Part shown: positions 23,165 to 58,900 of the stretch, in pieces
How positions within the stretch are numbered: the stretch's first letter is position 1
Layout of the letters: each line of letters opens with the position of its first letter
Source of the DNA: Roseivirga sp.
GTDB taxonomy: Bacteria; Bacteroidota; Bacteroidia; Cytophagales; Amoebophilaceae
DNA: 64,000 bases
Reading direction: 5' to 3'
Assembly: GCA_051016155.1 (NCBI GenBank)
Contig: CP136537.1
Span: 192,935-256,934, forward strand
The notes under the pieces: model-generated
The model's input: the letters and a program-made list of their open reading frames with translations, nothing else
What the model was told of the DNA's origin: nothing
Databases searched by the model: none
Position numbers and translations under genes: made by a program

Positions 23165-23225
23165 AGTGGATGGTAAGAATATTAAGAAACTCTCCTTACG
23201 CGCTCCCTTCTCAGTACGCCTCATT

Positions 23226-23302
23226 TTGTCATGCTGAGCGCAGCGAAATATCGCTGCGAGGCCCACACCACGTGGAGGTTCCTCGCCAGGCTCGGAATGA
23301 CA
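23226..23302. repeat. palindromic dispersed element (TTGTCATGCTGAGCGCAGCGAAAT...CCTCGCCAGGCTCGGAATGACAA)
   Basis: Inverted arms gtcatgctgagcg / gctcggaatgac. Confidence 0.8.
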
Positions 23303-41160: not shown

Positions 41161-41285
41161 GCCAGTCTTCACAAAAAATCCTTGACAAGAAAAATCTCCC
41201 TAGGGCCAAGCAGCGTCAGCTTTTCAAGCGAAACCCTTATAAAATACTTCTCTTTGAGCGCGAACAACCAGTCCTTGGGCGTTAG
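41161..41285 (+). repeat. partial copy of the nested-hairpin element
   Basis: ...ccctagggccaagcagcgtcagcttttcaagcgaaacccttataaaatacttctctttgagcgcgaac aligns with 44095-44170. Confidence 0.7.
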
Positions 41286-41364: not shown

Positions 41365-43839
41365 TTGCTCGTATTTAGTCAGCTCCCAGCCATCACTGGA
41401 GGAAAAATCATTCAGTGCGCTACCGATAGGCCGATCGAGCACCTACTGCTGGATAGCAGAAAACTTGTGCTTGCTTCCAACAGCCTCTTTTTTGCCCTCA
41501 AAGGCCAGCGCCACGACAGCCACCAGTTTATCCCTGCAGTCTATGCACAAGGCGTCAGACAGTTTGTCGTAGAGCAGGAAGCCCCTGCTACCTACCAGCA
41601 GCTGCAAGGGGCGAACATCCTTCAGGTGCCCAACAGCATCGAGGCCCTACAGCAGTTAGCGGCCCACCACCGAAGTCAATATACCCTTCCTGTACTGGCC
41701 ATTACCGGCAGCAACGGTAAGACCATCGTTAAAGAGTGGCTCAGCCAGCTCTTGGCCCTCCAATACACTGTAGTCAAAAGCCCTAAAAGCTATAACTCTC
41801 AGACAGGCGTGCCACTTTCTGTGTGGCAGCTCCATGATACGCATCAGTACGGCATTTTTGAAGCAGGCATCTCCTTGCCTGGCGAAATGGCTAAGTTGGA
41901 ACAAGTGCTTCAGCCTACAGTGGGCTTGTTCACCAACATAGGCCCTGCACATGACCAAGGCTTTGCTACGCAGCAGCAGAAGCTGCAAGAAAAAGCCCTC
42001 CTCTTTAAAAATTGCCCTAGGATTCACTATTGCCTCGACCATACCCCTATCCATCAAGTGCTGCAAAAGCAATATCATGGCAAGGCTGAGCTGGTTACAT
42101 GGTCTTGGCAAGCCTCTGCCGCTAACTATCAGGTCCAAAGAAGGCTGTTGCCTACAAGTACCCAAACAGAAATCATCGTAACTACGCAGCAGCAACAGCA
42201 CACCTTCTTAGTCCCTTTCCAAGACGCTGTCTCGCTAGAGAACGTAGTCCATTGTATTGTTTTCTTGCTGCACGAAGGCTCGGATCCATCCCTGCTGCAG
42301 GCAGCCCTTGCCAAGCTCAGTGCAGTGCCCATGCGCCTGACCGTCAAGCAAGGCATCAACAACTGTCAAGTGATTGATGACACGTACAACAATGACTTGG
42401 TGGGGCTACAAGTGGCCTTAGACTTTATGGCACAGCAAAAGCAGTCCCTGAAAAGAACCGTAGTGCTATCTGACTTGCTACAAACAGGGATAAAGGCTGA
42501 AAAACTGTATCCACAAATCGCACAACTACTGCAGGCCAAGCACGTAGATCGGGTCATTGGTATTGGAGAAGAGATAACAACACAAGCAGCTGCTTTTGTT
42601 AAGCTAGAGGCACAATTTTACCCCCATACAGAAGCTTTCTTACAAGAGGCTGCTCAGCCCCCATTCAGCCATGAGCTAATACTGGTCAAGGGCGCCCGAC
42701 GCTTTGGCTTGGAACGCGTGGTCAATCGATTGCAACAAAAAATCCACAGCACAGTCCTTGAAGTCAACCTAGAGGCAGTCACGCACAACCTCAATTTTTT
42801 TCGTAGCCAACTGACCCCAGGCACTCGCCTGATGGCTGTGGTCAAAGCCTTGGCCTATGGCAGCAGTAGCTTTGAGATTGCCCACTTGCTGCAGTACCAT
42901 CGCGTGGACTACCTGGCCGTGGCCTATGCAGACGAAGGCGTATTGCTCCGAGAAAACGGCATCACCCTACCCATCATGGTGATGAACCCTACGCCAGAGA
43001 GCTTTGATAAGCTATTGGCCTACGACCTGGCGCCTGAGGTATACAGCTTAAAGCTACTGCAGGCTTTGCTTGATTTTCTGACATTCCAGGACCAACCTAT
43101 CGATATTCACCTGAAGCTAGAAACAGGCATGCATCGACTCGGTTTTAGTCAAAATGAGCTCGAAACGCTTGTCTCCTTACTGCGTGCCACGCCTCAGCTG
43201 CGTGTGGTAGGCATTATGAGCCACTTAGCGGCAGCAGGAGATGCTCAACAAGATGCTTATACGCAACAACAGTTGGCACTGTTCATGCGGCTAGCCCAGC
43301 ACATAGAAAAAAGCCTCAGCATACGTACCCTCAAGCATGTCCTTAATTCTGTTGGTACGCTGCGCTTTCCTGACTACCACTTGGACATGGTGCGGATGGG
43401 GATTGGTCTGTACGGCATAGGCATGGAGGCATTCACGCAGCAGCCCCTAGAAGTAGTTAGCACACTCAAAACGGTTATTTCTCAACTCAAAGTGATTCCC
43501 CCAGGCAGCACTGTAGGCTATGGCAGACAAGGCGTGGCTACACAAGAGATGCGCATCGCCACGATTGCCATTGGCTATGCCGACGGCTTTAACAGGGCCC
43601 TGGGCAATGGCCGTGGCCATGTCTGGATCAATGGCCATCGTGCACCTGTGGTGGGGCATGTTTGTATGGACATGAGCATGGTCGATGTGACGCATATTCC
43701 AGCCACTGAGGGCGATGAAGTCATCATTTTCGGTCCTCAACAGCCTATTACTGAGATGGCTGCTGCCATGCAAACCATTGCTTCTGAAGTATTGACCAAC
43801 ATCAGCGAGCGGGTCAAGCGGGTATACTATATCCCATAA
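41365..43839 (+). CDS. bifunctional UDP-MurNAc-tripeptide:D-Ala-D-Ala ligase (MurF) / alanine racemase (Alr) fusion
   Basis: The N-terminal half has the Mur ligase P-loop ITGSNGKT. The C-terminal half has VVKALAYGSS (PLP-Lys motif) and alanine-racemase-like MSMVDVT...ERVKRVY. This fusion is known in Bacteroidota. Confidence 0.9.
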   Translation: MLVFSQLPAITGGKIIQCATDRPIEHLLLDSRKLVLASNSLFFALKGQRHDSHQFIPAVYAQGVRQFVVEQEAPATYQQLQGANILQVPNSIEALQQLAAHHRSQYTLPVLAITGSNGKTIVKEWLSQLLALQYTVVKSPKSYNSQTGVPLSVWQLHDTHQYGIFEAGISLPGEMAKLEQVLQPTVGLFTNIGPAHDQGFATQQQKLQEKALLFKNCPRIHYCLDHTPIHQVLQKQYHGKAELVTWSWQASAANYQVQRRLLPTSTQTEIIVTTQQQQHTFLVPFQDAVSLENVVHCIVFLLHEGSDPSLLQAALAKLSAVPMRLTVKQGINNCQVIDDTYNNDLVGLQVALDFMAQQKQSLKRTVVLSDLLQTGIKAEKLYPQIAQLLQAKHVDRVIGIGEEITTQAAAFVKLEAQFYPHTEAFLQEAAQPPFSHELILVKGARRFGLERVVNRLQQKIHSTVLEVNLEAVTHNLNFFRSQLTPGTRLMAVVKALAYGSSSFEIAHLLQYHRVDYLAVAYADEGVLLRENGITLPIMVMNPTPESFDKLLAYDLAPEVYSLKLLQALLDFLTFQDQPIDIHLKLETGMHRLGFSQNELETLVSLLRATPQLRVVGIMSHLAAAGDAQQDAYTQQQLALFMRLAQHIEKSLSIRTLKHVLNSVGTLRFPDYHLDMVRMGIGLYGIGMEAFTQQPLEVVSTLKTVISQLKVIPPGSTVGYGRQGVATQEMRIATIAIGYADGFNRALGNGRGHVWINGHRAPVVGHVCMDMSMVDVTHIPATEGDEVIIFGPQQPITEMAAAMQTIASEVLTNISERVKRVYYIP

Positions 43840-43941: not shown

Positions 43942-44290
43942 GGCCCTTAACAACTCAAATAATACTGCTTTTATAGCTATATGGCCTATTTTGTCTATAA
44001 AATAGGGCTCTTGTTCCATATCTCTGCGTACAGAATTGGCAAGGTTTGACCCAAGTTTGCCATTCCTTGCAAAAAATTACTTGGCGCAAAACCCGCCTAG
44101 GGCTGAGCAGCGTTAGCTTTTCAAGCGGAGGCACATAAAATATTCCTCTGTTTGAGAGCGCCCGAAGGGAGATCGAGTCAGGAAGATTTTAGGCCGAGAG
44201 CGCAGAAAAGGTAGCTGCGTGCCCTCAGCGGAGGGCTTTTTTGGTTCCTTTTTTGGGCGGTTGCCAAAAAAGGAACCCGCCGGAGGCAAA
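43942..44290 (+). repeat. dispersed nested-hairpin element, longest copy
   Basis: Aligns with 29175-29425. It also carries a perfect 14-bp hairpin ggttccttttttgg-gcggttg-ccaaaaaaggaacc at 44242-44276. Confidence 0.8.
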
Positions 44291-44463
44291 AGTTGACTAG
44301 GAGAAAAAGTGCTAAATATTTCATGGAGGCTGATGTCTACTGAGAATTCAACTGTTCTTATGGGTCAGCTATTTCAAGCTGAGAGACAGAATTTCTTACT
44401 ACCTTGCTTCCACTAGAATTTTCACCGTTCTGAATTCACTATCCAGCCGCTTGCCGTATTTGT

Positions 44464-45024
44464 ATGCTTCCTCCCCTCCCACCCCAAGAGCGCATTCTCC
44501 TGGGCATCGATCCAGGTACTACCGTGATGGGCTATGGTATCATTCAGCAAAAACAGCAGCGGCTAAGCGCTGTGCAGTACGGCGTCATCCACTTACATCG
44601 CTATACTACCCATGCCCTGAAGCTGCAGAAAATCTTTGAACGCGTCTTGAGCCTAGTAGATGACTTCCATCCTGATGAAGTAGCCCTAGAAGCCCCTTTT
44701 TACGGTAAGAACGTCCAGTCCATGCTGAAACTGGGCAGGGCCCAGGGAGTGGCTATGGCAGCTGCCCTGGCCCGAGAAGTGCCCATTACAGAGTATGCAC
44801 CACGCAGTATCAAGCAGGCCGTCACCGGGCAAGGCCAGGCTTCCAAAGAGCAAGTAGCCCGCATGCTGGTGTCACTGCTGCAGCTCAAAGCCGTGCCTGA
44901 CTTGCTCGATGCCTCTGATGCCCTGGCCGTCGCTGTCTGTCATGCCTACCAGGGTCGACAAGCCAACGCTAAGCCCACCAGCTGGAAACAGTTTCTACAA
45001 ACACATCCTAGGGTGATCGGGTGA
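44464..45024 (+). CDS. ruvC: crossover junction endodeoxyribonuclease RuvC
   Basis: ILLGIDPGTTVMGYGII, EAPFYGKNVQS, ASDALAVAVCH. Confidence 0.93.
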   Translation: MLPPLPPQERILLGIDPGTTVMGYGIIQQKQQRLSAVQYGVIHLHRYTTHALKLQKIFERVLSLVDDFHPDEVALEAPFYGKNVQSMLKLGRAQGVAMAAALAREVPITEYAPRSIKQAVTGQGQASKEQVARMLVSLLQLKAVPDLLDASDALAVAVCHAYQGRQANAKPTSWKQFLQTHPRVIG

Positions 45025-45032
45025 TTGCCTAA

Positions 45033-45056
45033 CTAGCGCGGAAGTTACTTCCGTAG
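45033..45056 (+). other. cassette-boundary motif CTAGCGCGGAAGTTACTTCCGTAG (contains the perfect palindrome CGGAAGT-T-ACTTCCG)
   Basis: It lies 9 nt after the ruvC stop. Its TAG is the in-frame stop preceding toxin cassette 1. Related copies are at 52746-52769 and the reverse complement of 60282-60305. Confidence 0.7.
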
Positions 45057-45066
45057 TAGGCAAGGG

Positions 45067-45591
45067 GTGTTTAACTTACGACTGCCTGACACTACCCGCC
45101 TTCTGCCGCCGATTACTGGAGAGATGCTCACCAGGGCGTTTAACATGGCCCTAGACCTGACGGTGCCAGGTAGTGAGGGGATTAAGATTCTCTTAGGCAC
45201 AGTAGAGCGCCCAGAGACGCTAGAGCAGTGTGTGGAGGCAGCTTTAAATACAGCTTTGGACTTTATCCCTATGGGGAAGGTCTTCAAGCAAGGCGCTGCA
45301 CTATGTAGTTTCTCGCCGAAGCAGGTCCTTAAACAAAAGCTGCGGGAGCTTCTTAAGAAGAAGGCAGGCAAGCCAGTAAAGGCGGCAGGACAGGTGCTAC
45401 AGTCTGGTGGGAACAAGCTATCGAAGCGTACACTGAAGGCCTTGGGACTGACAAAAGAGCAAGGTAAAGATGCGATACATGCGCTAAAAGATGCTTGTAC
45501 CCTTCCAAACGCTTTTCATGGTCAAATATTGGCCAACGGAAATTATATACACCCTCAAACAAAGCAGGTAATAGATAATTTGTTTAATTAA
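45067..45591 (+). CDS. polymorphic-toxin-like protein, cassette 1 (shared pre-toxin region + variable C-terminal domain, type A)
   Basis: GTG start. LPPITGEMLTRAFNMALDLTVPGSEGIKILLGTVERPETLEQCVEAALNTALDFIPMGKVFKQGAALCSFSPKQVLKQKLRELLKKKAGKPVKAAG is shared with cassettes 2, 2b (part), 3 and 4. The C-terminus GQVLQSGGNKLSKRTLKALGLTKEQGKDAIHALK...FHGQILANGNYIHPQTK is shared only with cassette 4. Confidence 0.7.
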   Translation: MFNLRLPDTTRLLPPITGEMLTRAFNMALDLTVPGSEGIKILLGTVERPETLEQCVEAALNTALDFIPMGKVFKQGAALCSFSPKQVLKQKLRELLKKKAGKPVKAAGQVLQSGGNKLSKRTLKALGLTKEQGKDAIHALKDACTLPNAFHGQILANGNYIHPQTKQVIDNLFN

Positions 45592-45619
45592 GTTAAATAA
45601 ACAGATAGCTTCACCCGTT

Positions 45620-46060
45620 ATGAAAGGAGATTATTATGTTAATAAAACTGAATGTTCATTTGGTTTCACCTCAGAGATAATAACCCCAGAAGAGTTTACA
45701 AAACAGATAGCCATAAAGCCTAGCAGATCTTTTAAAAAGGGCGAAGAATTTATAGTGAAACACTCAGGATCAGTGCTAATACGTCCTTGGCACCTTTGGG
45801 AAATTTCATCATCAGCTGTTATTAATGAGCAAGAATCCATACAACCCCATATTGATTACTTAAAAACAACACTCGCTGATAAAGTAGACATCCTAAAAAA
45901 GTATAAGGAAGATCCAAGCCTGGAGCTTAGTATATGGATATGGATTGAATCAGAGAATGCAGGCATGGGCTTTGACATCAGTGCCGAAGATATGCACTTC
46001 ATGAGTAAAATATGCAATCGCATTAGTTTCAGCCTACTGGCGACGGAAAATATAGAGTAA
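45620..46060 (+). CDS. immunity-like protein, DUF4279-like (cassette 1)
   Basis: 146 aa, AT-rich, starting 29 nt after the toxin stop. The pattern CSFGFTSEIITPEEFTKQIAIKPSRSFKKGE...HLWEISS...QPHIDYLK...LELSIWIW...GFDISAEDMHFMSKI fits my recollection of DUF4279 (PF14106). Confidence 0.65.
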   Translation: MKGDYYVNKTECSFGFTSEIITPEEFTKQIAIKPSRSFKKGEEFIVKHSGSVLIRPWHLWEISSSAVINEQESIQPHIDYLKTTLADKVDILKKYKEDPSLELSIWIWIESENAGMGFDISAEDMHFMSKICNRISFSLLATENIE

Positions 46061-46470
46061 AACCCTCATCAACTAGCGCAAGCAAACCTATAAAGCTGGT
46101 TCAAGCGTCCTCGCTTGGACCGCCAGGCACAGCACAGAGTTCCGTGACAATGGACGCAGCCCAGCGCTATATCAAAAGTCTCTATGCGGCCCCAGTTGGG
46201 AAGAGGCACAGGAGCTGCTGACCGGGGCTTTTAATCTGGCTCTGGACCTGACGGTGCCAGGTAGTGAGGGGATCAAGATTCTCTTAGGCACAGTAGAGCG
46301 CCCAGAGACGCTAGAGCAGTGTGTGGAAGTAGCTTTAAATACAGCTTTGGGCTCTATCTCTATGGGGAAGGTCTTCAAGCAAGGTGCTGCGCTGTGTAGT
46401 TTCTCGCTGAAGCAGGCCCTTAAACAAAAGCTGCGGGAGCTTATTCAGAAGAAGGCAGGCAAGGCAGTAA
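46061..46470 (+). repeat. conserved cassette leader + pre-toxin region, copy A
   Basis: About 90% nt identity (by eye) with 47793-48200. It begins aaccctcatcaACTAGCGCaagcaaacctataaagctg. Confidence 0.85.
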
Positions 46471-46706
46471 AGGCGGCAGGGAAGACGATAAACTTCGGTA
46501 GGATAAAGGTCCCCTCTGAAGTTTTTCACAAACAAATAAAACGGAACATTCTTAAAAGAGCAGGCAACTTTTCCAAAGTGGTTGGCAAGAATCCTGACGT
46601 CAAAATAATTGGCGGTAAAATCAGATTGACTGGAAGAGGCCCTTTTAAGGGCAAAAGCTTCAACACTGATTTAGATGTAACAGACTTCTTCGGAGACTTC
46701 CTATAG
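46077..46706 (+). CDS. orphan polymorphic-toxin module, cassette 2 (no canonical start codon before GTG 46254; C-terminal domain type B)
   Basis: The frame is open from the TAG at 46074-46076: RKQTYKAGSSVLAWTARHSTEFRDNGRSPALYQKSLCGPSWEEAQELLTGAFNLALDLTVPGSEGIK... The variable C-terminus after KAVKAAG is KTINFGRIKVPSEVFHKQIKRNILKRAGNFSKVVGKNPDVKIIGGKIRLTGRGPFKGKSF. Confidence 0.6.
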   Translation, partial: RKQTYKAGSSVLAWTARHSTEFRDNGRSPALYQKSLCGPSWEEAQELLTGAFNLALDLTVPGSEGIKILLGTVERPETLEQCVEVALNTALGSISMGKVFKQGAALCSFSLKQALKQKLRELIQKKAGKAVKAAGKTINFGRIKVPSEVFHKQIKRNILKRAGNFSKVVGKNPDVKIIGGKIRLTGRGPFKGKSFNTDLDVTDFFGDFL

Positions 46707-46708
46707 TA

Positions 46709-47074
46709 ATGAGTAATGGAAAAACGATAATGGAAAAAACAATTTACAGACTTCAAATAAGGTGTTCTACCGATGAACAAGTGAGGAAAGTTTCGAGCAT
46801 ACTCAACAGAGAGCCTGCAGAGCCAATGGGGAATACATGGCTCGAAGTTGAAGAAAAAAAGGGGGATGAGTACTTTGATTTTATAAATCAATTTTTAGAT
46901 ATCCTCGAAGGAAAGTATGAGCAATTACAGTCTGTCGGGGTGCATAGAGAAGACATCAGCGTATGGTTTTTGTACCAGTATGAGGATCAATGTAATATGG
47001 AGTTCTTACCAAGTGATCTAAAGAGATTAGGGACTAACCGAATCAGCCTCTGTATTTCTTGCTGGGCGTCTTAA
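46709..47074 (+). CDS. immunity-like protein (cassette 2), distant DUF4279-like architecture
   Basis: It starts 3 nt after the toxin stop, is 121 aa and AT-rich. ...DFINQFLDILEGKYEQLQSVGV..ISVWFLY...LKRLGTNRISLCISCW. Confidence 0.55.
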   Translation: MSNGKTIMEKTIYRLQIRCSTDEQVRKVSSILNREPAEPMGNTWLEVEEKKGDEYFDFINQFLDILEGKYEQLQSVGVHREDISVWFLYQYEDQCNMEFLPSDLKRLGTNRISLCISCWAS

Positions 47075-47146
47075 CTAACTATCTCAATTGGCGTAGATGT
47101 TTTTCGTTTGGGCCACAGTCTCCCGGCTGGCGCGGGTACAGAGTTC

Positions 47147-47550
47147 CCCATGGGGCAGATCTTCAAGTAAGGTGCTGCGCCGTGGAGTTTTTCCCCGAAG
47201 CAGGTCCTTAAACAAAAGCTGCGGGAGCTTCTTAAGAAGAAGACAGGCAAGGCAGTAAAGGCGGCTAGGAGTTCTTTAAAGACAATTATAAAAGGCAAAA
47301 ATCTACCTACGAGTGGGAAGATACGCTTTATCCCACGCAAGCCAGATATTCAATCAGGGCAGCTACTATCCAAAGACGGTGGTTTTATAGACAAATTTGG
47401 GAATGTGTGGAGGAGAGGCCTAAAGGTAATATTATTGGAGAACCACACTGGGATGTACAGCTATCTCCTACTGGCAAAAGACAGTTGGGGCACATGTCAA
47501 GAAGTGGTACACATATCAATGTGACTTTGGATGGACGGATCGCACACTGA
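47147..47550 (+). pseudogene. degenerate toxin module, cassette 2b (keeps only the last ~120 nt of the shared region; premature TAA and a frameshift; C-terminal domain type C)
   Basis: PMGQIFK*GAAPWSFSPKQVLKQKLRELLKKKTGKAVKAA then RSSLKTIIKGKNLPTSGKIRFIPRKPD...DKFGNVW. After a frameshift it reads EPHWDVQLSPTGKRQLGHMSRSGTHINVTLDGRIAH*. TAA replaces the CAA seen in the other copies. Confidence 0.6.
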
Positions 47551-47569
47551 AGAAACCTTGTCAATAAGT

Positions 47570-47791
47570 ATGAACTTACCTGAACTTTTTTGTGCTAAGA
47601 ATACAGTTCTTAAACTCAGAAAAAAAATTAACATAGTTGTAAACGAAAGTTCTGTAGTTCTTGAGCCAGGCACTCTTTTTCAAGTTAAAAATATTGTAGG
47701 ATATGGTTTTGATCTGATCTCTTTAGACACTAATCGCTATAAAATTAGGGTCATAAACTCAGATATGCCTCTGTATTTTAATAATCCTTAA
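47570..47791 (+). CDS. immunity-like small protein (cassette 2b)
   Basis: MNLPELFCAKNTVLKLRKKINIVVNESSVVLEPGTLFQVKNIVGYGFDLISLDTNRYKIRVINSDMPLYFNNP. AT-rich, starting 20 nt after the degenerate toxin end. Confidence 0.5.
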   Translation: MNLPELFCAKNTVLKLRKKINIVVNESSVVLEPGTLFQVKNIVGYGFDLISLDTNRYKIRVINSDMPLYFNNP

Positions 47792-47792
47792 A

Positions 47793-48200
47793 ATATTTCG
47801 CCAACTAGCGCAAGCAGGCCTATAAGGCTGATTCAAGCATTCTCGCTTGGACCGCCAGGCACAGCACAGAGTTCTGTGACAATGGACGCAGTCCAGCGCT
47901 ATATCAAAAGTCTCTATGCAGCCCCAGTTGGGAAGAGGCCCAGGAGCTGCTGATCAGAGCTTTTAACCTGGCTCTGGACCTGACGGTGCCAGGTAGTGAG
48001 GGGATCAAGATTCTCTTAGGCACAGCAGAGCGCCCAGAGACGCTAGAGCAGTGTGTGGAAGCAGCTTTAAATACAGCTTTGGACTTTATCCCCATGGGGA
48101 AGGTCTTCAAGCAAGGCGCTGCACTATGTGGTTTCTCCCTGAAGCAGGTCCTTAAACAAAAGCTGCGGGAGATTATTAAAAAGAAGGCCGACAAGGCGGT
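47793..48200 (+). repeat. conserved cassette leader + pre-toxin region, copy B
   Basis: tatttcgccaACTAGCGCaagcaggcctataaggctg..., aligning along its whole length with 46061-46470. Confidence 0.85.
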
Positions 48201-48465
48201 AAAGGGGGCTAATAGGGCAGAACACCAAGCTACTTTACCTCGTTCCGGGCTTATTCTGCAGACTGTTGGCGCAGCTTCTCGCTCTGAGATGTTCGCACGC
48301 CAACTAAATCTAAAAATAAATAATTTACCTACTAGGCAAGTGCTAAATAGCTCAGATGATACAGTGGAGGTTTTTGTGAGCAGGTTTAGGAAGTCTTCTA
48401 TTAGATCTCAATTGCCGGGTGAGTTTCTGAATATGACCTTAGAAGAAGCAATAATAAGACTGTGA
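47809..48465 (+). CDS. orphan polymorphic-toxin module, cassette 3 (no canonical start before GTG 47986; C-terminal domain type D)
   Basis: The frame is open from the TAG at 47806-47808, with the same 177-nt offset to the GTG as in cassette 2. The variable C-terminus after KAVKGA is NRAEHQATLPRSGLILQTVGAASRSEMFARQLNLKINNLPTRQVL...IRSQLPGEFLNMTLEEAIIRL. Confidence 0.6.
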   Translation, partial: RKQAYKADSSILAWTARHSTEFCDNGRSPALYQKSLCSPSWEEAQELLIRAFNLALDLTVPGSEGIKILLGTAERPETLEQCVEAALNTALDFIPMGKVFKQGAALCGFSLKQVLKQKLREIIKKKADKAVKGANRAEHQATLPRSGLILQTVGAASRSEMFARQLNLKINNLPTRQVLNSSDDTVEVFVSRFRKSSIRSQLPGEFLNMTLEEAIIRL

Positions 48466-48496
48466 GAAAACTATTGATTAACCAAAGATTCGTCAA

Positions 48497-48814
48497 GTGA
48501 TAGACAAAGACAAAACGATAATTGATTTTCTGCAGAAGGTACGTAGTAAACCAGACTTTGCTACTGTTGAAATAGTAGATTATTGGGACGGAGATTTGTG
48601 TGCCACAGGACTGAGAAAGAATGATCGGCTAGTTTATATCTCTACTTATGGATTCTGTAAGCAAAATATTAGAGATGACTCAGAAACAGAATATGACTGT
48701 GATTTCGAGATGTTAGACAAAAAAAACCTTGCCACTTTACGAGTGGTAAAAGAAATAAAAACAAAAGATAAAGAGTATTTATTTAAAGAAATAAAGAGGT
48801 TTTTAGGAGTTTAA
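48497..48814 (+). CDS. immunity-like protein (cassette 3)
   Basis: 105 aa, GTG start, AT-rich. ...FATVEIVDYWDGDLCATGLRKNDRLVYISTYGF... Not DUF4279-like. Confidence 0.5.
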   Translation: MIDKDKTIIDFLQKVRSKPDFATVEIVDYWDGDLCATGLRKNDRLVYISTYGFCKQNIRDDSETEYDCDFEMLDKKNLATLRVVKEIKTKDKEYLFKEIKRFLGV

Positions 48815-48976
48815 TATAGCCTTACTGTGAGCAGTTGCTGATTACGTCTAGCTATAAGTATTAATGGTGCTTAGGTTAGCGGCATTGGGATCCATATCAT
48901 ACAGCATACTTGGCCAAGCCAGGAGGCGGCAGCGCTCCAGAGGCTGACCCAAGATATTCAAAAAGCTACGACCTCT

Positions 48977-49510
48977 TTGACGGAGCTTTGCGACGCAGCT
49001 GGCTTGGCAATGCCCGACCTTACCAGTCCTCTGCCACCGATTACTGGAGAGATGTTGACCAGGGCTTTTAACCAGGTGCTCGACAGTACGGTCCCGGGCA
49101 GTGCATTGATCAAAGTCATGCTGGGTACGGCAGAGAGTCCGCAAACGATAGAGCAATGCCTACATTTGGCTTTGGATGTAGCGCTAGATTTGCTGCCTGG
49201 CGGCAAGCTCACGAAGCTATCGAAGAGCCCTTCTGTCAAGCTCGGATTGGCCAAGATGAAGAAGCTCTTGGGCAAGAAGGCCATGAAGAAGGCGACAGGA
49301 CAGGTGCTACAGTCTGGTGGGCATACGCTATCGAAGCGTACACTGAAGGCTCTGGGATTGACAAAGGGCCAGGGTAACGAAGCTATCCATATGCTGAAAC
49401 GCAACCGTAAGCTTCCTAATAATTTTCATGGTCAAATATTAGCTAATGGGGATTATATACATCCTCAAACCAAAGAATTACTAGGTAATATATTCGATTA
49501 CGTGAGATAA
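48977..49510 (+). CDS. polymorphic-toxin-like protein, cassette 4 (diverged pre-toxin region; C-terminal domain type A')
   Basis: TTG start, but the frame is open from 48875 (…QHTWPSQEAAALQRLTQDIQKATTSL...), suggesting a fragment of a longer gene. The C-terminus GQVLQSGGHTLSKRTLKALGLTKGQGNEAIHMLK..FHGQILANGDYIHPQTK parallels cassette 1. Confidence 0.65.
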   Translation: MTELCDAAGLAMPDLTSPLPPITGEMLTRAFNQVLDSTVPGSALIKVMLGTAESPQTIEQCLHLALDVALDLLPGGKLTKLSKSPSVKLGLAKMKKLLGKKAMKKATGQVLQSGGHTLSKRTLKALGLTKGQGNEAIHMLKRNRKLPNNFHGQILANGDYIHPQTKELLGNIFDYVR

Positions 49511-49522
49511 GTTCTATTAACT

Positions 49523-49963
49523 ATGGCAAATGCTTACTACATCAATAAAACTGATTGTTCGTTTGGTATTAGTTCAACTACGCTATCTCCAGAAGAGATT
49601 TCAAAACAACTAAAGCTTACACCAAGCAGATCGTTTATAAAAGGAGAAAAGTACAAATCCAAGCATTCGGGCTCAATAATTACAAATCTCTGGCACCTTT
49701 GGGAAATTTCATCATCAACTGTTATTAATGAGCAAGAGTCCATACAACCACACATTAATTACTTGAAAACAACACTCGCTGATAAAGTAGACATTCTAAA
49801 ACAGTATAAGGAAAATTTAAGCCTGGAGCTTAGTATATGGATATGGATTGAATCAGAGAATGCAGGTATGGGCTTTGACATCAGTGCCGAAGACATGCAC
49901 TTCATGAGTAAAATATGCAATCGCATCAGTTTCAGCCTACTGGCGACAGAAAATATAGAGTAA
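49523..49963 (+). CDS. immunity-like protein, DUF4279-like (cassette 4)
   Basis: 146 aa. The C-terminal ~88 aa are about 93% identical to ORF 45620-46060, while the N-terminal ~58 aa are only about half identical. Confidence 0.65.
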   Translation: MANAYYINKTDCSFGISSTTLSPEEISKQLKLTPSRSFIKGEKYKSKHSGSIITNLWHLWEISSSTVINEQESIQPHINYLKTTLADKVDILKQYKENLSLELSIWIWIESENAGMGFDISAEDMHFMSKICNRISFSLLATENIE

Positions 49964-50130
49964 AACCCTCATCAACTAGCGCAAGCAAGCCTATAAGGCT
50001 GATTCAAGCGTCCTCGCTTGGACCGCCAATAGCCTCCCTACCACTGCACAGAGTTCTGTGACAATGACGCAGCCCAGCGCTATATCAAAAGTCTCTATGC
50101 GGCCCCAGTTGGGAAGAGGCACATGCCAGG
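49963..50130 (+). repeat. truncated cassette leader, copy C (no toxin body follows)
   Basis: aaaccctcatcaACTAGCGCaagcaagcctataaggctgattcaagcgtcctcgcttggaccgcc...gacaatgacgcagcccagcgctatatcaaaagtctctatgcggccccagttgggaagaggcaca, then unrelated sequence. Confidence 0.8.
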
Positions 50131-50184
50131 GGTACTGCGCTAGGGAGGAGTGACCAGGTAACTTGAGAAATATGTACAGTAAAA

Positions 50185-50619
50185 ATGGAAGTAGAATACG
50201 TCAAGTCATACTGTGAACTAAGAATAGCCTCGCAAGCTTTCTCTCTAGAACAAATTACAAAAGAGTTAGGGCTTACGCCTGATTTCTCCTTTTGTAGTAC
50301 TGATAGCGCCAGATCAAGTCAACAAGAAGAAACGAAGCACAATCTATGGATGATTGTCTCTCCAACTATCATCTCTGAAGAAAGAGACATAACACCACAC
50401 ATCAGCTATATGAGATCGAAATTAAAGAGTAAGAGAAATATACTTTTGAAATACAAAAAAGATCAGAGACTCGAGCTTATTTTCACAGTGCGGATTGAAA
50501 CTGAAGATATAGTTTCAGGATTCAGTTTGAGTAGGGAAGATGTACTCTTTATCAATTCAATCTGTAATCGCTGTGAGCATTTTTATACTTGTAAAGGGGA
50601 TGTCATAACTAAAAAGTAG
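50185..50619 (+). CDS. immunity-like protein, DUF4279-like (immunity-only module, first gene)
   Basis: CELRIASQAFSLEQITKELGLTPDFSF...HNLWMIVS...TPHISYMRSKL...LELIFTVRIE..GFSLSREDVLFINSICNR. Confidence 0.6.
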   Translation: MEVEYVKSYCELRIASQAFSLEQITKELGLTPDFSFCSTDSARSSQQEETKHNLWMIVSPTIISEERDITPHISYMRSKLKSKRNILLKYKKDQRLELIFTVRIETEDIVSGFSLSREDVLFINSICNRCEHFYTCKGDVITKK

Positions 50620-50676
50620 TGCTAAGCTTAAGTGTGGCTTTACACTAAAGAACAAAAAAGCATAAGAGATAATAGG

Positions 50677-51141
50677 ATGTTAAGTGGCTGTATCATCGAT
50701 GAACTAAACTGTGAATTCTCCATTACCTCGCGTATTGTAGCTCCAGAAGAGATCACGAAGCAGCTGGCCGTACAACCAAGTAGGTGTTTTACCAAAGGCG
50801 ATACTTTTCTATCTGAGCACTCAGGCTTGCTAGTTGTACGCCCCTATCATCTTTGGGCTATCACCTCAACAGATGTAATAGAGGATAAAGAAGACCTACG
50901 ACCACACATTGATTACTTAAAATCTAAACTCAGTCAAAAGGACACTATATTGAAGCAGTATAGGGAGGATCATCGGCTTGAGCTTGTTTTCAGTATATGG
51001 ATCAAGGTATTAGGAGAATCTTTAAGTTTTATCTTAGGTGAGCATGAGCTTGCTTTTATTGGCACAATTTGCAACCGATGCGACTATTTTTTTCTTGCCA
51101 AGGAAACAAATGTAGCTAACGACAACGTAGCTCAACATTAG
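50677..51141 (+). CDS. immunity-like protein, DUF4279-like (immunity-only module, second gene)
   Basis: MLSGCIIDELNCEFSITSRIVAPEEITKQLAVQPSRCFTKGD...HLWAITS...RPHIDYLKSKL...LELVFSIWIK. Internal ATG chosen; the ORF track start is GTG 50632. Confidence 0.6.
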   Translation: MLSGCIIDELNCEFSITSRIVAPEEITKQLAVQPSRCFTKGDTFLSEHSGLLVVRPYHLWAITSTDVIEDKEDLRPHIDYLKSKLSQKDTILKQYREDHRLELVFSIWIKVLGESLSFILGEHELAFIGTICNRCDYFFLAKETNVANDNVAQH

Positions 51142-51157
51142 TAAGCCCCGGCTGGCG

Positions 51158-51172
51158 CGGAACTAAGTTCCG
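51158..51172. other. perfect palindrome CGGAACT-A-AGTTCCG at a cassette boundary
   Basis: Read directly, 17 nt after the stop of ORF 50632-51141, within ccccggctggcgcggaactaagttccgtgacc (compare 47115-47145). Confidence 0.6.
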
Positions 51173-51183
51173 TGACCAGTGAG

Positions 51184-51310
51184 GCAAGCCTATAAAGCTG
51201 ATTCAAGCGTCCTCGCTTGGACCGCCAGGCACAGCACAGAGTTCTGTGACAATGACGCAGCCCAGCGCTATATCAAAAGTCTCTATGCGGCCCCAGTTGG
51301 GAAGAGGCAC
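51184..51310 (+). repeat. cassette leader, copy D
   Basis: gcaagcctataaagctgattcaagcgtcctcgcttggaccgccaggcacagcacagagttctgtgacaatgacgcagcccagcgctatatcaaaagtctctatgcggccccagttgggaagaggcaca. It carries the same 1-nt deletion (gacaatgacgc) as copy C. Confidence 0.85.
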
Positions 51311-51468
51311 ATGCCAGGAGTCTTGCGCCAGGTGGGGAGGTTCTCCGAAAAGCAGGCATTACCAATCCCAATATTTGCGTAGACAGTGCAGGCAATATTG
51401 TCCTGACACATCCTGTCACTAAACAACCTATTCCCACTGGGATACCTTTGTCTGAACTTGCTAAGTAA
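51256..51468 (+). pseudogene. short start-less toxin remnant, cassette 6
   Basis: The frame containing SWEEA continues as HARSLAPGGEVLRKAGITNPNICVDSAGNIVLTHPVTKQPIPTGIPLSELAK*. There is no ATG or GTG in frame, and the upstream in-frame stop is TGA at 51253-51255. The ORF-track ORF 51179-51382 is the neighbouring frame. Confidence 0.45.
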
Positions 51469-51513
51469 GCGTTATGCCTGTCACCAAAGCCTTTGCTGCC
51501 TGTGTTTTACTAG

Positions 51514-52328
51514 ACAGTGTCGTCAGGAGAGTCCTAGCCATAAAGCTAGACATCTGATTTGAATAGCGGCCAGAAATGAGCTCCTTCTCTTTGCATAGCG
51601 CGTACATATCCCGCGCCAACGCTTCAGATACAAAAACGTGTTCTCTATCACATGACGTAGTTGATACACTTCTCGGTTGTAACTGCGCGCTACTTTTCTA
51701 TGCTTCCTACTCGGTATTACACATTGTCTATTCTTTGATTTCACCTCTTTGACTACTTGCTCTGTGTCATAGCCCCTATCTGCTATCACTCCCCCTGCAG
51801 GCAAGTCTTTGAGCAGCTCAACACCTTGCTTACAATCTGCTTCGGTACCTGCTGTAATAATGGCTCTGAGCGGCATACCAGACGCATCCACGGCCAAATG
51901 TAGTTTTGTATTGAGCCCCCTTTTGTGCGATTCATCGCCTCATTTCCGCCCACTGCCCCCGTCCCATGGGGATGCACTTTTATATGACTCGCATCGATCA
52001 TCAGCCACGTGTAGTCTGGTTCATCTGACAGTAATTCCAAAAGCTTCTCCCATGTTCGATTATCGCGCCATCGACAAAAGCGTCGGTTCGTATTATTCCA
52101 CTCGCCGTAATGAGGAGGCAAGTCTCGCCATGGGGCTCCCGTTCGTAAGATCCAGAACACGGCGTTAATAAATTTTCTATTGTCTTTAGCTACCCCTCCC
52201 CAAGCGCCAGCTCTTCCAGGCAAATGAGGGGCAAGTTTGTTCCATACTTCATCGGAGATATCGTGTCGTTGATAGGCAGGTTGTTTCAGCATTTTTTGCC
52301 TTAAGATAATATCTTATGTCGACACTGC
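51514..52328 (-). mobile_element. IS5-family insertion sequence (two-ORF, frameshift type), 815 bp, flanked by a CTAG target-site duplication
   Basis: Terminal inverted repeats acagtgtcg (51514-) and cgacactgc (-52328). CTAG is at 51510-51513 and 52329-52332. Removing the IS and one CTAG restores a continuous ORF. Confidence 0.85.
51523..52292 (-). CDS. IS5-family transposase, orfA (51786-52292) and orfB (51523-51897) joined by a -1 frameshift
   Basis: orfA ...FINAVFWILRTGAPWRDLPPHYGEWNNTNRRFCRWR...MIDASHIKVHPHGTG...NRTKGG. In the -1 frame, at the A-AAA-GGG-GG run, it continues LNTKLHLAVDASGMPLRAIITAGTEADC...ADRGYD...RHVIENTFLYLKRWRGICTRYAK. Confidence 0.85.
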
Positions 52329-52332
52329 CTAG

Positions 52333-52739
52333 GAGATGATTTTAGTCCTAAGAAGTTGAGTAAGATAACTGGTTTGAAGTCTGAAGATCCTGTAGAAAAA
52401 GGAGATATTGATGTTCGAGGTCATGAGTGGACCTATGGTGGGGCAATCATTAATCACGCTTCCCATATTAACCAAGAAGGAGAGCATATAGATTTATCCA
52501 CCATGCTCCAGGTGTTACTAGACCATCAAGAGCACTTGAAGACTTGTCAAGTAGAGCGTATCTACTTGACGCTCAACTTCTTTCACACCTCTGACATCTC
52601 AGCATGGCACCTAGACCATGCAGACCTCAAAAAGATTGTAGCGCTGGGCGAATTCTTGGGCTTTGATATTGGTCTGTCGCTGGATTGGTACCAGATGGAT
52701 GGGGAGGAAGAAGAGAGTGAAGCTAAAGAGGACGAATAA
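52333..52739 (+). pseudogene. DUF4279-like immunity gene, 3' part, disrupted by the IS (5' part at 51474-51513)
   Basis: The 5' part atgcctgtcaccaaagcctttgctgcctgtgttttactag joins ga gat gat ttt... to give MPVTKAFAACVLLGDDFSPKKLSKITGLKSEDPVEKGD... The frame was verified codon by codon across the junction. Confidence 0.75.
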
Positions 52740-53306: not shown

Positions 53307-53747
53307 ATGCACCTGTCTATTCCTATTATCAACCACTCCAAGCACCTTTTGCCTGCTTATGCTACGCCTGATGCTAGCGGCATGGACCTGCGGGCCAACA
53401 TTGAGGAAAGTATTACTTTACTGCCTGGACAAAGAACACTCGTGTCAACAGGCCTACACATAGCTTTGCCCAAAGGCTTTGAAGCACAAGTAAGGCCTAG
53501 AAGTGGCTTGGCCTTCAAACATGGGATTACAGTACTGAACAGTCCTGGCACCATTGATGCTGACTATCGGGGAGAGATCAAGGTGCTGCTGATTAATCTT
53601 TCTGAGAAAGAGTTTAAGATTCAAGATGGCGAACGCATTGCGCAGTTGGTCGTAGCAGCCTACACGCCAGTAGAATGGCAACGTGTGGACCAACTCGACG
53701 ACACGCTCCGAGGCCAAGGAGGCTATGGAAGCACAGGTACGGTATGA
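53307..53747 (+). CDS. dut: dUTP diphosphatase
   Basis: [38 protein letters not shown]. Confidence 0.94.
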
Positions 53748-55245: not shown

Positions 55246-55965
55246 TTACTCGTCTTCCCACCAAAGATTGGTAACGTAGTACTTGATCATACTTGCATCT
55301 CCATAGTCGCGTCTGGTTCGTATCTGCAAGTAATAGTCAAAAGTACTTCCAGCCCACCTGAGGTCAAGCTTGTTTCGGTAGCTGCCATAATGCGCTTCCG
55401 TTTTTCTGATGGTATTGCTTGAGTTGCCGAATGCACTCAGTGCAATGGCGTGTATGATCGAGTACAAGCCTCTGCCTGGCTTACCAATCTGGGCCACGAC
55501 TTCAAATGCATGACAGTGACTTAGCTGAGGAGTTATGTTGTGCCATTCTTTGTTGCCAGGGACTTCTCCAGAGGCATACAGCCCTCTGCGGCCCTGCATG
55601 TGAATATTGCCAGCAACCTCCAGCTTGGCCGTAGGGTTGATGGTGCCAATGCCCACGTTCCCATCTTCTTTGATAAACAGCCGACTCTCTCCTCCTTGAT
55701 CCACCAGGTTCAAGCCAAAATCAGGGGTATCTTTAGGATATTGTTCAATGCCCCACTTAGGCTTAAGATCACTCAGGCTATTGAAAAAGGTGACCATCTT
55801 CTTGGCACTCCCTTTGGGGGATAGCTTGAGCCCCTCCTCCTGAGAAATGAGCCCATCGTCTTGTTTGTGATACAGAGAATCAACCAAGTCCTCAAAATCT
55901 TGCTGCGAAGGAATAGCTCCTTTTTCAAAGGCTTTTTTGAGCTGATTTCTGCTAACTATCGCCAT
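55246..55965 (-). CDS. tail-fibre/receptor-binding-like protein of a contractile injection system
   Basis: N-terminal L.KAFEKGAIPSQQDFEDLVDSL motif and DGNVGIGTINPTAKLEVAGNIHM, both typical (from memory) of short fibre proteins in eCIS and phage loci. Its start overlaps the upstream baseplate gene by 14 nt. Confidence 0.55.
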   Translation of the reverse strand: MAIVSRNQLKKAFEKGAIPSQQDFEDLVDSLYHKQDDGLISQEEGLKLSPKGSAKKMVTFFNSLSDLKPKWGIEQYPKDTPDFGLNLVDQGGESRLFIKEDGNVGIGTINPTAKLEVAGNIHMQGRRGLYASGEVPGNKEWHNITPQLSHCHAFEVVAQIGKPGRGLYSIIHAIALSAFGNSSNTIRKTEAHYGSYRNKLDLRWAGSTFDYYLQIRTRRDYGDASMIKYYVTNLWWEDE

Positions 55966-58900
55966 GGGGGGTACGCTTCTTAATATTTTTCTTGGTTACT
56001 AGGTAATACTCTTCTAGGCTTTCCTGTAAGACCTCTTGCTTGGCCTCAGCTGCCCAGTCTTTGCTTTTTCCTTCTTGCCAAGGCCCTACAATAAAATCTT
56101 CTCCAACGCGCATCTCATCCACGCCTCCACGGCGAAGGCCTAGGCGCGCACGAATTTTATCTAGCACAGAGATTTTATGCTTGTTGGCTGAAACCATTAC
56201 CGACCATGGATAGGTAGCCTTTAGATAGTTATCATAATCGGTGATTTTAGTAATGGTCATCCTAGCTCCTTGCCCTGTGTACTTCAATATGGAGAAGTTG
56301 CCTATGCCCTCTACGTATTCCTTTTTATTGATAAAGTCGATAATTTTCGAAGAGGGCATGATACCACCTAGCTTCACATCTTCTGCTTCGTCGAACAGCC
56401 AAGGGGAAAGAAAATTCCTAATTTCCTTCTGTAGTTTGTTCAAATATATGCCCTTTTCGTAGGTTGGCCTAAACTTTACCTCTATGTTCACTTTGACCTC
56501 TTCGTACATGGGATTCATGACCTCGAATTCGACAAAAGGCGATGATACACTTTGCAGGTAACGCTCAATTTCTCGTAACAGCTGTTTGGTCACTCTTGGC
56601 GTGAACTCACTCTCCTCGTTGCTGCTTTGTAGTCTATTGATCACCACCATCATGACTCTGCCTGGATAGGGGGCCCAAGGCTTGGCCTTGCTAGAGTGGT
56701 TAATGCATTTGACTCTAAAAATTTCAGGAAACTTTTCTAGAACAAGTCTTTCATAGTCCCAAGCAGAAATAGCCCTATTCTTGTGCCGAAGCCGCTCGCT
56801 GATTCTGGTATAAAACTGATCACTGTTTTCTGCTGGCTTGCCGCCAAAAGAGGCAAAAGGCTGTAATACTGCTTTTATTTCTTTAGGGTCTCCCCATACA
56901 TTTTGTAGGCTGCCCGGACGTAATGTATTGGGTAGTTCAGCTGTTCGGTCTTTGTCAATGACCCTAGAGGCCATGGCGACCTGGGTGCGGATGCTCACAA
57001 GCGTGGGGAGCGCCTCCATCGCCTCAAAGAATACCGCTCTGACCCAAATCAGCCCTGGACTGAACAGCGTATTGTCTTGATTGGCCGCTGGGGGAATGCT
57101 CAGCACGATGATGCCAGCCTTGGTCAGTCCATCGGTCCCATCTGAGATAATCTCGTCATCCTCAAAGTTGATCCAATCGTTGTGAGATAAATATTGCCAC
57201 GCGGGCCTGGGAAACGCTTTGTCTGGATCGATGCTCTTTTCATCAATCTGGAGGTGCACAGAGAGAAAGGAAGCCGTCAGTTGTTCAAAACCAAAGCAAA
57301 AAAAGCAGCCTACACTTTCGGCACCAGACAAAAAAGTTACAGGACCAGTTTTATTCGGAAACACCTTCTTGTGGCCAAAAGGAGCCAGTCGTATTAAGGT
57401 CTGAGGAGGCTGCTCCTCTTCTTCCGTACGGCTTGTGAAGAAAATCTCTTCTCTGGCACTATAGTCTACAGACAAGGATTTGATGACAGGGGTGTAGGGT
57501 TCATTAAGGGGCGGAGGCGAGGCAGGTCCTTTGTTTTTACTGTTTTTGCTGCTAGCACGCTGGATAAAAGATTGACCCATGAGCGTAGGATATAGGCTAT
57601 GGCCAAATGCCATCTTAGGGCCAACGAGCTCTAGCCTGAGAAAGCCTGCCAATGTCTTAGGAGTGAGCGTAGACGCTGTGAGCTTATGCTCAGTGACTGC
57701 TAGGTTGAGTCTATCAAGATCGATCTCATTAATGCTGCGTTTACGCTGTAATTTTTGTGTACCATACCTCCCCCCTTCTTCTTCGGTAGTAAAGAGCGGT
57801 ACTCTTTGCCTGTTTTCGGCGTATAGAGGATACCACTGTCGATGATTCAGGTAGGAGACGCTTACCTCAAAGTCTTCATTAGTTACCTGCTGAGGATAGC
57901 CTTGGTAGTGACTGGTCCACCCGCCCTCCACAGTAGGTAAGTTGTCCCATTCTATATTAATGCTCAAGCTTTTGAGGTCTTTGTAAAAGAGTTCATCACT
58001 GCCCAAATAGAAGTTAGCGTGCAGCTGTGGAAATGGTCCAAAAGGTTGGAACGGAAGACTGGTATCTATCAGCCCTGAATCGTTTTGTAGCGTAAGGTCT
58101 TTGTAGTCTGTTACAACTACCTCTAAGGCCAGCTTGTTAAGCACCAAATCTTTGAATAAATAAATATGGCCAAAGTGAGTCGGGTCATTAAGGCCTAACC
58201 TGATCGCCGGGGCCTGAATATCATACGTTCCTTCATGCACGGCAGGATCAAAGTTGACCACCGGGGGCATGTCAGGCGGCAGTGAAAGCAAGAACTCAAT
58301 ACAATCTTCCTCTTCAAGACTAATAACAATGGTGATATTTGTTGGAGGCAGATACATCCATGACGCTTCTGAAGTGAGATAGATATCAATTGCTTCTTTG
58401 AATAGGACAATCATCTTGTCCTGTATGCCCCCTAGGTCTTCTTCCTTGCTTTGTCTGATTCTTTCTAATAGGGTCTCGAAGGAGGGCTTACTGAACTTAA
58501 ACTTGAGTTTGACCTCTCTATTGCCTTCTTTGAGATAGAAAATAGGAGAAGCCACCACGAGCCCTAAAAAGTGCCGATTCACCTCTTGTTGATGCGTGTT
58601 GTCTTGTTGGGGAGTAGCGCTAGGTGCCGGTTGGTCAATGATCTCCTCGTTGTAAGTAGTAGCACTGATGCTACCTACTGGCAAAAAGCCCTCTTGGGTG
58701 GGTTCCTCTACTATCTGCTGCACTCTGTGCACCTTGCTAACGACGCCATGGTTAAGCATGATCGCGCTGTGGGTCTTGAAGATAATATCGTGTCCCTCCT
58801 TGTCCTTGCCTGCCAAAACCTTGACGCCTGGAGGAAGAAAGTAGCGGATTACCCATGGCTGTACTTGGAACTGTACCACCACTTGGTCTGCCTGTACAGG

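Follow-up and report, generated by a model that had tools for sequence, protein, structure and literature searches.

In a 64,000-nt stretch of DNA from Roseivirga sp. (GenBank assembly GCA_051016155.1, contig CP136537.1, positions 192,935 to 256,934; referred to as the window), a segment of about 400 nt is repeated almost unchanged among the small genes between ruvC and dut, and the question raised by this locus is what the repeats are and what keeps them alike. A first-pass annotation of the sequence had described them as a conserved leader running into pre-toxin sequence, and had proposed that the leader was under selection, either for homology to be used in the replacement of toxin tips or for an RNA or regulatory function. 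The source lineage is an Amoebophilaceae-like member of the Cytophagales, with ClpX 80% and RuvC up to 85% identical to the proteins of Amoebophilaceae metagenome-assembled genomes (MAGs). A co-oriented row of small open reading frame (ORF) pairs is flanked by ruvC (44464-45024) and dut (53307-53747), and fills 45025-52739. Judged from the sequence, this row appears to belong to a polymorphic toxin family, as an array of orphan toxin-tip/immunity cassettes in which 5'-truncated toxin pieces are each followed by an immunity gene. The explanation that we consider probable is that each repeat consists of a spacer and a stub of the pre-toxin (PT) domain, that the copies act as passive homology tracts, and that the array, with its silent and decaying toxins, serves as a store of immunity genes. 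The cassettes are called 1, A, 2b, B, 4, C and D in their order along the array, and all array features lie on the plus strand.

Copy A of the repeat (46068-46475) and copy B (47800-48207) were identical at 373 of 408 positions (91.4%) without gaps, and sliding windows showed an abrupt loss of similarity at both ends. Of copies C and D, only the initial ~143 nt remain. A and D agreed at 126 of 130 positions with one 1-nt gap, A and C at 135 of 143 with the same gap and a 12-nt insertion in C (~50029-50040), and C and D at 125 of 129. The gap is a missing G: A has GG at 46152-46153, as does B at the equivalent position, and C (~50066) and D (~51254) have a single G, so that the toxin frame acquires a TGA immediately ahead of ...RSPALYQ. 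In cassette 2b the final 126 nt of the shared sequence are present (47145-47270, 87% identity), and cassette 1 holds the same PT stretch at 45125-45384, with 92% identity to A and to B alike. One 32-mer taken from the leader occurred three times compared to 0.00 expected in shuffled sequences, and nhmmer gave E values of 1e-47 to 1e-51 for all four leader copies; chance is therefore excluded as the origin of the repeats.

The boundary between the two parts of the repeat was located by comparison with full-length toxins. In tblastn searches, homology to these toxins started at 48935 in cassette 4, 45070 in cassette 1, ~46206 in A and ~47938 in B, and C and D diverge from A and B exactly after 46210. 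The ~143 nt at 46068-46210 are therefore not toxin sequence. The junction between leader and PT lies at 46210/46211 in A and at 47942/47943 in B, and the PT part of the repeat corresponds to the last ~88 codons of the conserved PT domain preceding the variable tip. The leader is best read as a putative non-coding spacer between cassettes, and might just as well be named the trailer of the cassette before it. Contig depths in the source metagenome (X1) fit only four local copies of it. Exact leader 25-27-mers had no match in GTDB representative genomes or JGI metagenome contigs, and blastn with the leader against plasmids and phages gave no match. The first-pass description of the copies was largely confirmed by these results: the identity of about 90% between A and B held, with coordinates right within about 7 nt, and the alignments and the frame reading agreed that C and D are leader-only copies with one G missing and a TGA in the toxin frame. 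The ~120 nt of shared sequence ascribed to 2b was also correct. The leader had rightly been taken as non-translated, but its length of ~190 nt was too long, judged by where the PT homology begins, and has been reduced to ~143 nt.

The toxin family behind the cassettes was identified by an exhaustive phmmer search with cassette 4, which found 265 relatives. These include proteins of 1989 and 2135 aa in which the PT domain lies at the very C-terminus; in the 1989-aa one (P0006) it is succeeded by the same variable tip as in the query. P0009 carries the PT domain. In Candidatus Amoebophilus sp. 36-38 (contig L081), a 1851-aa protein with a signal peptide as well as a lipobox ends in PT and a cassette-B-like tip, and the gene after this toxin is homologous to the gene after cassette B. 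Amoebophilus-like genomes contain full-length members of 1851-2135 aa, all with signal peptide plus lipobox. Homology of the cassettes to the C-termini of full-length toxins, the synteny with L081, and the Pfam families Ntox17 and DUF4279 together point to an orphan toxin-tip/immunity array, and the first-pass reading of these units as toxin cassettes is supported. The locus has the features by which such arrays are known. The tips are homologous to the C-termini of large multi-domain toxins (PT and tip of P0006 and L081), the immunity gene co-varies with the tip (B type in L081, DUF4279 after 1-, 4- and D-type tips), from which protection is predicted, and the toxin pieces are truncated at different 5' points (48935, 45070, 46211, 47943 and 47145), with D lacking PT altogether. 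The GC content was 52-57% in leader and PT, 41-43% in the tips and 32-40% in the immunity genes, compared to 47% for the window, which is the usual pattern for such loci. Members of the family (L081 5045-10905, P0006, P0009 and P0089) range from 790 to 2135 aa. They have a signal peptide plus lipobox, an N-terminal domain that is conserved, long stretches of coiled coil and, at the C-terminus, PT; their hydrophobic stretches are likely membrane-spanning. No Pfam domain was found in L081, the sole family member scanned.

Recombination within the array was evident from its mosaic structure. The 3' half of immunity gene 1 (45620..46060), from ~45788 onwards, is 95-98% identical to immunity gene 4 (49523..49963). 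When immunity gene 1 with leader A was compared to immunity gene 4 with leader C, 61 of 168 positions differed before 45788 and 18 of 337 after it (36% vs 5%). The maximum chi-square for a breakpoint at ~45788 was 81, a value reached in 0 of 2000 permutations, and third codon positions on the two sides differed at 29 of 56 and 9 of 91 sites, respectively (P=4e-8). The pattern is that expected of a conversion or exchange tract, which would run from the middle of the immunity gene into the leader.

Related strains were found to carry the array in other arrangements. In X2, a marine metagenome relative with a 98% identical ruvC, one contig joins the ruvC end, the 5' end of cassette 1 and cassette 4 (joint 45127->49056). 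A k-mer chimera can be dismissed for this joint, as no 31-mer is common to the two copies at that point. Depth in X2 was 0 for immunity gene 1, immunity gene 2b and cassette B, and the insertion sequence (IS) at 51510-52328 was absent (joint 51509->52329). The leader was never followed by PT in X2 and X5, and in X2 it always had a C/D-type continuation; leader forms with and without the missing G were both present in X2. In X3 and X4 the palindrome on the ruvC side is followed directly by the leader. The leader-to-PT junction of A and B is so far specific to the source strain, and junctions in other strains fall inside PT and leader homology, with no single fixed boundary. Recombination at the repeats is supported by these contigs, from which cassette content and order appear to differ between strains. 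The first-pass annotation had suggested breakpoint and dN/dS analyses, and had named a completely static locus across strains as evidence against exchange; the mosaic breakpoint at ~45788, a PT dN/dS of 0.28-0.37 and the variable metagenome contigs are the outcome.

The toxin halves of the cassettes are in decay. None of the seven toxin pieces is full-length. Those of 2b and B are frameshifted, C has no toxin, D is a remnant of ~45 codons, and in both A and B a CTG replaces the only plausible ATG of cassettes 1 and 4. Seven of the eight immunity genes are intact, and the eighth (51484-52739) is split by an IS. With its toxins decaying and its immunity genes intact, the array is therefore most likely a store of immunity genes today, and only potentially a donor of tips. 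No full-length toxin and no N-terminal toxin homology was found in the window by tblastn.

In this explanation, the ~400-nt repeat is a ~143-nt spacer with repetitive extragenic palindrome (REP)-like hairpins joined at 46210/46211 to the last ~88 PT codons. The array would have grown through duplication and the replacement of cassettes, multiplying spacer and PT alike, and gene conversion would keep their copies similar. The repeats would offer passive homology for unequal exchange and conversion, possibly of the RecA type, by which cassettes could be added, deleted and reordered between strains. The toxin stubs, presumably not expressed, are decaying, and the immunity genes, presumably of selective value, stay intact.

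The array begins directly after ruvC with a junction (45025..45066) in which motif scan and folding revealed a short leader 5' end, made of AACTAGCGC, the palindrome CGGAAGTTACTTCCG and GGCAAG, joined to cassette 1. This form of junction was not found after ruvC in seven related Amoebophilaceae MAGs. The toxin fragment of cassette 1 is a 174-aa ORF (45067..45591) with PT at 45070-45384 and the tip at 45385-45591; it is 5'-truncated relative to the full-length toxins and matched residues 1816-1989 of P0006 (tblastn, E 3e-41). Immunity gene 1 belongs to DUF4279 (Pfam PF14106, E 2.7e-10). It is followed by leader copy A (46068..46210), predicted to be non-coding and with the hairpin GGTTCAAGCGTCCTCGCTTGGACC at 46098-46121, and by the toxin fragment of cassette A (46211..46706; PT 46211-46475, tip 46476-46706), the tip of which matches P0003 and P0088. 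With CTG in place of the ATG, the first canonical start in cassette A is a GTG at 46254. Immunity gene A (46709..47074), of 121 aa and no Pfam family, comes directly after the toxin stop. The spacer before 2b (47075..47144) has a half copy of the palindrome motif (GGCTGGCGCGGGTACAGAGTTCC) and an abrupt joint to the PT tail. The toxin fragment of 2b (47145..47550) consists of the last 126 nt of PT and a tip with a 1-nt frameshift near 47417, which when read through the frameshift matched Ntox17 (PF15524, E 2.2e-22). Immunity gene 2b (47531..47791, 86 aa) was assigned by ORF and position.

Leader copy B (47800..47942), identified by alignment and nhmmer, is followed by the toxin fragment of cassette B (47943..48499), with PT up to 48207 and a tip homologous to that found in the 1851-aa Ca. 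Amoebophilus sp. 36-38 toxin (tblastn to L081, E 2.6e-38). A frameshift near 48455 removes the last ~14 codons; the +1 frame reads KTVRKLLINQRFVK and a stop, compared to TTVRKLLMQGRFIK and a stop. Immunity gene B (48497..48814) is homologous to the gene after the L081 toxin (tblastn, E 2e-17). The toxin fragment of cassette 4 (48871..49510) has the longest upstream stub, no leader in front and a tip of the cassette 1 type, and matched residues 1795-1989 of P0006 (tblastn, E 3.5e-50). Immunity gene 4 has the same length as immunity gene 1 and shares 115 of 147 residues with it (78%, ungapped), and was assigned by this homology and not by a Pfam scan of its own. Leader copy C (49971..50124), with its 12-nt insertion and one G missing, continues into TGCCAGG... 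without a toxin, and the two DUF4279 immunity genes after it (50185-50619 and 50632-51141; Pfam E 1.4e-9 and 1.1e-11) have no toxin partner. Leader copy D (51147..51313) is the full form, with an extra 5' palindrome, CTGGCGCGGAACTAAGTTCCGTGACCAG (51152-51179), and one G missing. It is followed by a cassette-1/4-type tip remnant without PT (51314..51467, …GNIVLTHPVTKQPI…); it was judged by eye to resemble the cassette 1, cassette 4 and P0006 tips. Immunity gene D (51484..52739) looks DUF4279-like by eye and gave no Pfam hit; it is split after ~9 codons by the IS at 51510-52328, and its frame is uninterrupted when joined across the IS (51509->52329). This IS is an 819-bp IS5-family element with the transposase on the minus strand, DUF4096 and DDE_Tnp_1 ORFs in two frames, and CTAG at both ends. 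Its depth in the source metagenome was 500-1300 vs ~45, which suggests roughly 15-30 genome copies.

The leader is built of palindromic pieces, and a degenerate copy of the palindrome is present inside every leader (…AGAGTTCYGTGACAATG…). Further copies are found at the start of D and after ruvC, where the palindrome at 45031-45054 is a close relative of the one in D; a half copy lies before 2b (47127), and in L081 a similar palindrome is located ~50 nt downstream of the immunity gene. The 24-nt hairpin GGTTCAAGCGTCCTCGCTTGGACC of leader A recurs in the window at 10423-10446 on the minus strand, in an intergenic position. Exact copies were found at 19 intergenic loci (L162-L180) in Haemophilus, Aggregatibacter, Sporocytophaga and Chitinophagales; they tend to lie close to the 3' end of a gene, and in one case stand in tandem with a 32-nt period (L164). 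No Rfam family was found for this hairpin, and a string search of the literature gave no match. A tRNA fragment or att site was considered for the GGTTCAAG... hairpin and rejected, as the sole tRNA of the window, a tRNA-Leu at 36182, is unrelated and the T-arm does not fit. The 45031 palindrome was likewise rejected as a ruvC terminator, as it is absent after ruvC in seven related MAGs. A separate, high-copy intergenic repeat is located upstream of ruvC at 44070-44300 (depth ~259 vs ~40 in the source metagenome), with a partial copy at 41191-41230 upstream of an 824-aa ORF (41365-43839) that is an apparent fusion of a MurF-like ligase and an alanine racemase, judged from the translation alone. 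One stretch of this repeat, GGCGCAAAACCCGCCTAGGGCTGA, resembles the leader start (AGCGCAAGCAAGCCTATAAGGCTGA), and a joint 44169->49978 in X1 is probably due to this partial match.

Other explanations of the leader were weighed against the passive spacer. If toxins A and B were extended at the N-terminus by a translated leader, the 1-nt indel would switch copies between two protein frames; the first-pass annotation had described a switch of frames by this indel. The toxin frame is indeed open across the leader of A and B, back to a TAG at 46074 and 47806, and a second frame is open too. However, such openness is within chance (P=0.18 in shuffles for the toxin frame, P=0.08 for two open frames), and no ATG, GTG or TTG was found ahead of 46254 in A or 47986 in B. 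The two open frames, as searched, had no relatives among 5.8 billion predicted proteins, and a search with the cassette A protein including the leader frame returned only the window's own proteins and one tip relative. With only 9 substitutions to count, the leader dN/dS came out equal (0.3-0.4) for the two frames. The central part of the leader is hypervariable among related strains, with length differences of 5, 10 and 12 nt; these are not multiples of three, and coding is therefore unlikely. The indel itself sits in a GG dinucleotide and not in a slippery or repeat tract, and both forms co-exist in X2, so that the missing G of C and D appears to be a neutral indel in non-coding DNA without frame-switching meaning. 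Translation of the leader is accordingly regarded as very improbable. A role as promoter, 5' untranslated region or small regulatory RNA, driving separate expression of the orphan units and especially of the immunity genes after C, is less far-fetched, but still unlikely. It would account for leader C lying directly ahead of two toxin-less immunity genes, for a 35-nt core (51254-51288) that is identical across copies and strains, and for a 10-bp hairpin in the leader. Against it, no Bacteroidetes-type TAnnTTTG/-33 promoter was found on the plus strand of any leader copy, none of the sigma-70-like sites found lay within a leader, and an Rfam scan gave no relevant family up to E 1, only a chance lncRNA hit. 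Leader folding energies were no better than those of shuffled sequences (z +0.06 to -1.9), and the hypervariable middle is difficult to reconcile with such a role. The RNA or regulatory function proposed at first is thus not borne out by the sequence. Nor is selection for homology: the leader was conserved no better than the adjacent coding PT (136 of 148 positions, 91.9%, compared to 237 of 260, 91.2%, between A and B), which is what co-duplication or gene conversion would give. The part of that proposal which stands is the involvement of the repeats in recombination, as seen in the breakpoint and the strain junctions. A diversity-generating retroelement with template and variable repeats was dropped by eye, without counting, since the differences between A and B are not visibly concentrated at adenines.

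Dedicated site-specific recombination, with cassettes captured and excised as units at the leader or at a boundary of palindrome and AACTAGCGC, is held to be about as unlikely as the regulatory role; integron attC sites and the intergenic repeats of recombinase-associated acquired interbacterial defence (rAID-1) clusters would be the models. Cassette starts carry either AACTAGCGC (45031, 46071, 47803, 49974) or GGCTGGCGCGG (47127, 51152), the palindromes at 45039 and 51158 are near-perfect, and a related palindrome lies downstream of a toxin-immunity pair in another species (L081). The co-oriented array of short ORFs with repeated spacers is also reminiscent of rAID-1 (bioRxiv 10.1101/471110), and the toxin stubs join the spacer at five different points. 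However, no tyrosine or serine recombinase was found in the 64-kb window, where a Pfam scan of long ORFs (29 scanned) detected only rve and IS5-type transposases. There is no attC-like R''/R' core pair, the junctions of other strains lie in PT/leader homology without a fixed boundary, and cassette 4 has neither a leader nor either of the boundary motifs. A more specific form of this idea is slightly less likely still: the leader, the AACTAGCGC boundary and the CGGAAnTnAnTTCCG palindrome could be the attachment site of an unrecognised, integron- or rAID-like cassette-capture system of the Amoebophilaceae, with the recombinase encoded elsewhere and the 24-nt hairpin as a protein-binding element. 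If this were true, a capture system would stockpile tip/immunity modules beside ruvC in an intracellular symbiont lineage previously thought to be without immunity genes.

Several observations count against the array of passive repeats and stored immunity genes favoured here. No other contig of the source metagenome matches the upstream stub of cassette 4, the longest in the array, at 80% nucleotide identity or above, and when the source genome was searched with a profile for a full-length toxin, only P0089 and an ankyrin protein were returned, and no such toxin from the source contig. Because no full-length recipient was found, neither here nor in the window, the role of the array as donor of tips is only potential, and the displacement of toxin tips suggested in the first-pass annotation found no support; a divergent full-length gene elsewhere is possible. 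The strain comparison was made on short-read metagenome contigs and not on closed genomes, and gives the cassette order in other strains only approximately. The leader is 3-8% diverged between copies, compared to a dS of 0.19-0.25 in the adjacent PT, and this difference is not significant by estimate (11 of 67 vs 12 of 148 sites). The lower divergence of the leader may leave room for some constraint or for more recent conversion. A regulatory role was judged on sequence evidence and is not refuted by it, and the exact 24-nt hairpin across phyla hints at a function for this sub-element. Simple decay, set aside in the first-pass annotation, is visible in the toxin halves, with 2b and B frameshifted, C and D reduced to remnants and A and B without ATG. 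Altogether, the repeats look like passive products of array growth and not like selected devices.

The leader resembles REPs and bacterial interspersed mosaic elements in its short, imperfectly palindromic units, and its 24-nt hairpin recurs between genes near their 3' ends, sometimes in tandem. Unlike these elements, the leader as a unit occurs in the source genome at this locus alone (~4 copies by depth), and no transposase of the REP-associated tyrosine transposase (RAYT) type was seen. REPs are normally species-specific, and an exact hairpin shared across phyla is unusual for them.

The closest known systems appear to be the orphan arrays of contact-dependent inhibition (CDI), Rhs and MafB toxins, together with rAID-1 for the repeated spacers and the bias towards intact immunity genes. 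Orphan C-terminal (CT)/immunity cassettes, such as cdiA-CT/cdiI of CDI, those of Rhs and MafB-CT of Neisseria, were generalised by Zhang et al. (2012, Biol Direct 7:18; PMC3482391). As in these systems, tips are paired with immunity genes, the pieces lack the 5' body of the toxin and keep part of the conserved pre-tip region, the variable parts have a low and the constant parts a higher GC content, and homology for tip replacement is at hand. In contrast to them, the array lies between ruvC and dut and does not follow a full-length toxin gene, some of the repeated homology (the 143-nt leader) consists of non-coding spacer and not of toxin, and the parent family is made of proteins of 1850-2135 aa with signal peptide and lipobox and no Pfam domain. 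The parent family resembles Amoebophilus APD-type effectors. According to Zhang et al. (PMC3482391), the APD-type lipoprotein effectors of Amoebophilus are regarded as deployed in parallel against the host, nearly without immunity genes. The L081/P0006-type family may correspond to these effectors, here with immunity genes. The rAID-1 clusters of Bacteroidales (Ross et al., bioRxiv 10.1101/471110; PMC12247911) share with the array their occurrence in Bacteroidota, co-oriented short orphan immunity genes, repetitive intergenic sequences, and intact immunity with absent or fragmentary toxins. They differ from it in that the array has no XerD-family recombinase nearby and retains PT-bearing toxin stubs, and its spacer is present in four copies only and was not found in the other genomes searched.

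Genes of a contractile injection system are scattered over the window (145-3117, plus strand; 55952-59773, minus strand), with a tape-measure protein (PF19268) and a 1273-aa baseplate-J-like protein, the latter encoded just ~3 kb past the end of the cassette array. The window also encodes an ankyrin-repeat protein and an IS transposase of the rve type (22340-23266, minus strand; 25323-26411, plus strand), which fit the eukaryote-associated, IS-rich genome style of Amoebophilus relatives.

For the repeats themselves the value of the analysis is mostly clarification: the leader is best seen as a spacer, the indel appears to have no coding meaning, and homology tracts, passive as they seem to be here, are an ordinary feature of polymorphic-toxin loci. 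What the locus shows for the Amoebophilus lineage is a toxin/immunity cassette system of the classical, serially variable kind, with eight immunity genes of which seven are intact, and its strain-to-strain cassette turnover can be read directly from metagenomes. The array points to competition of bacterium against bacterium, or a recent past thereof, in an endosymbiont-like organism.

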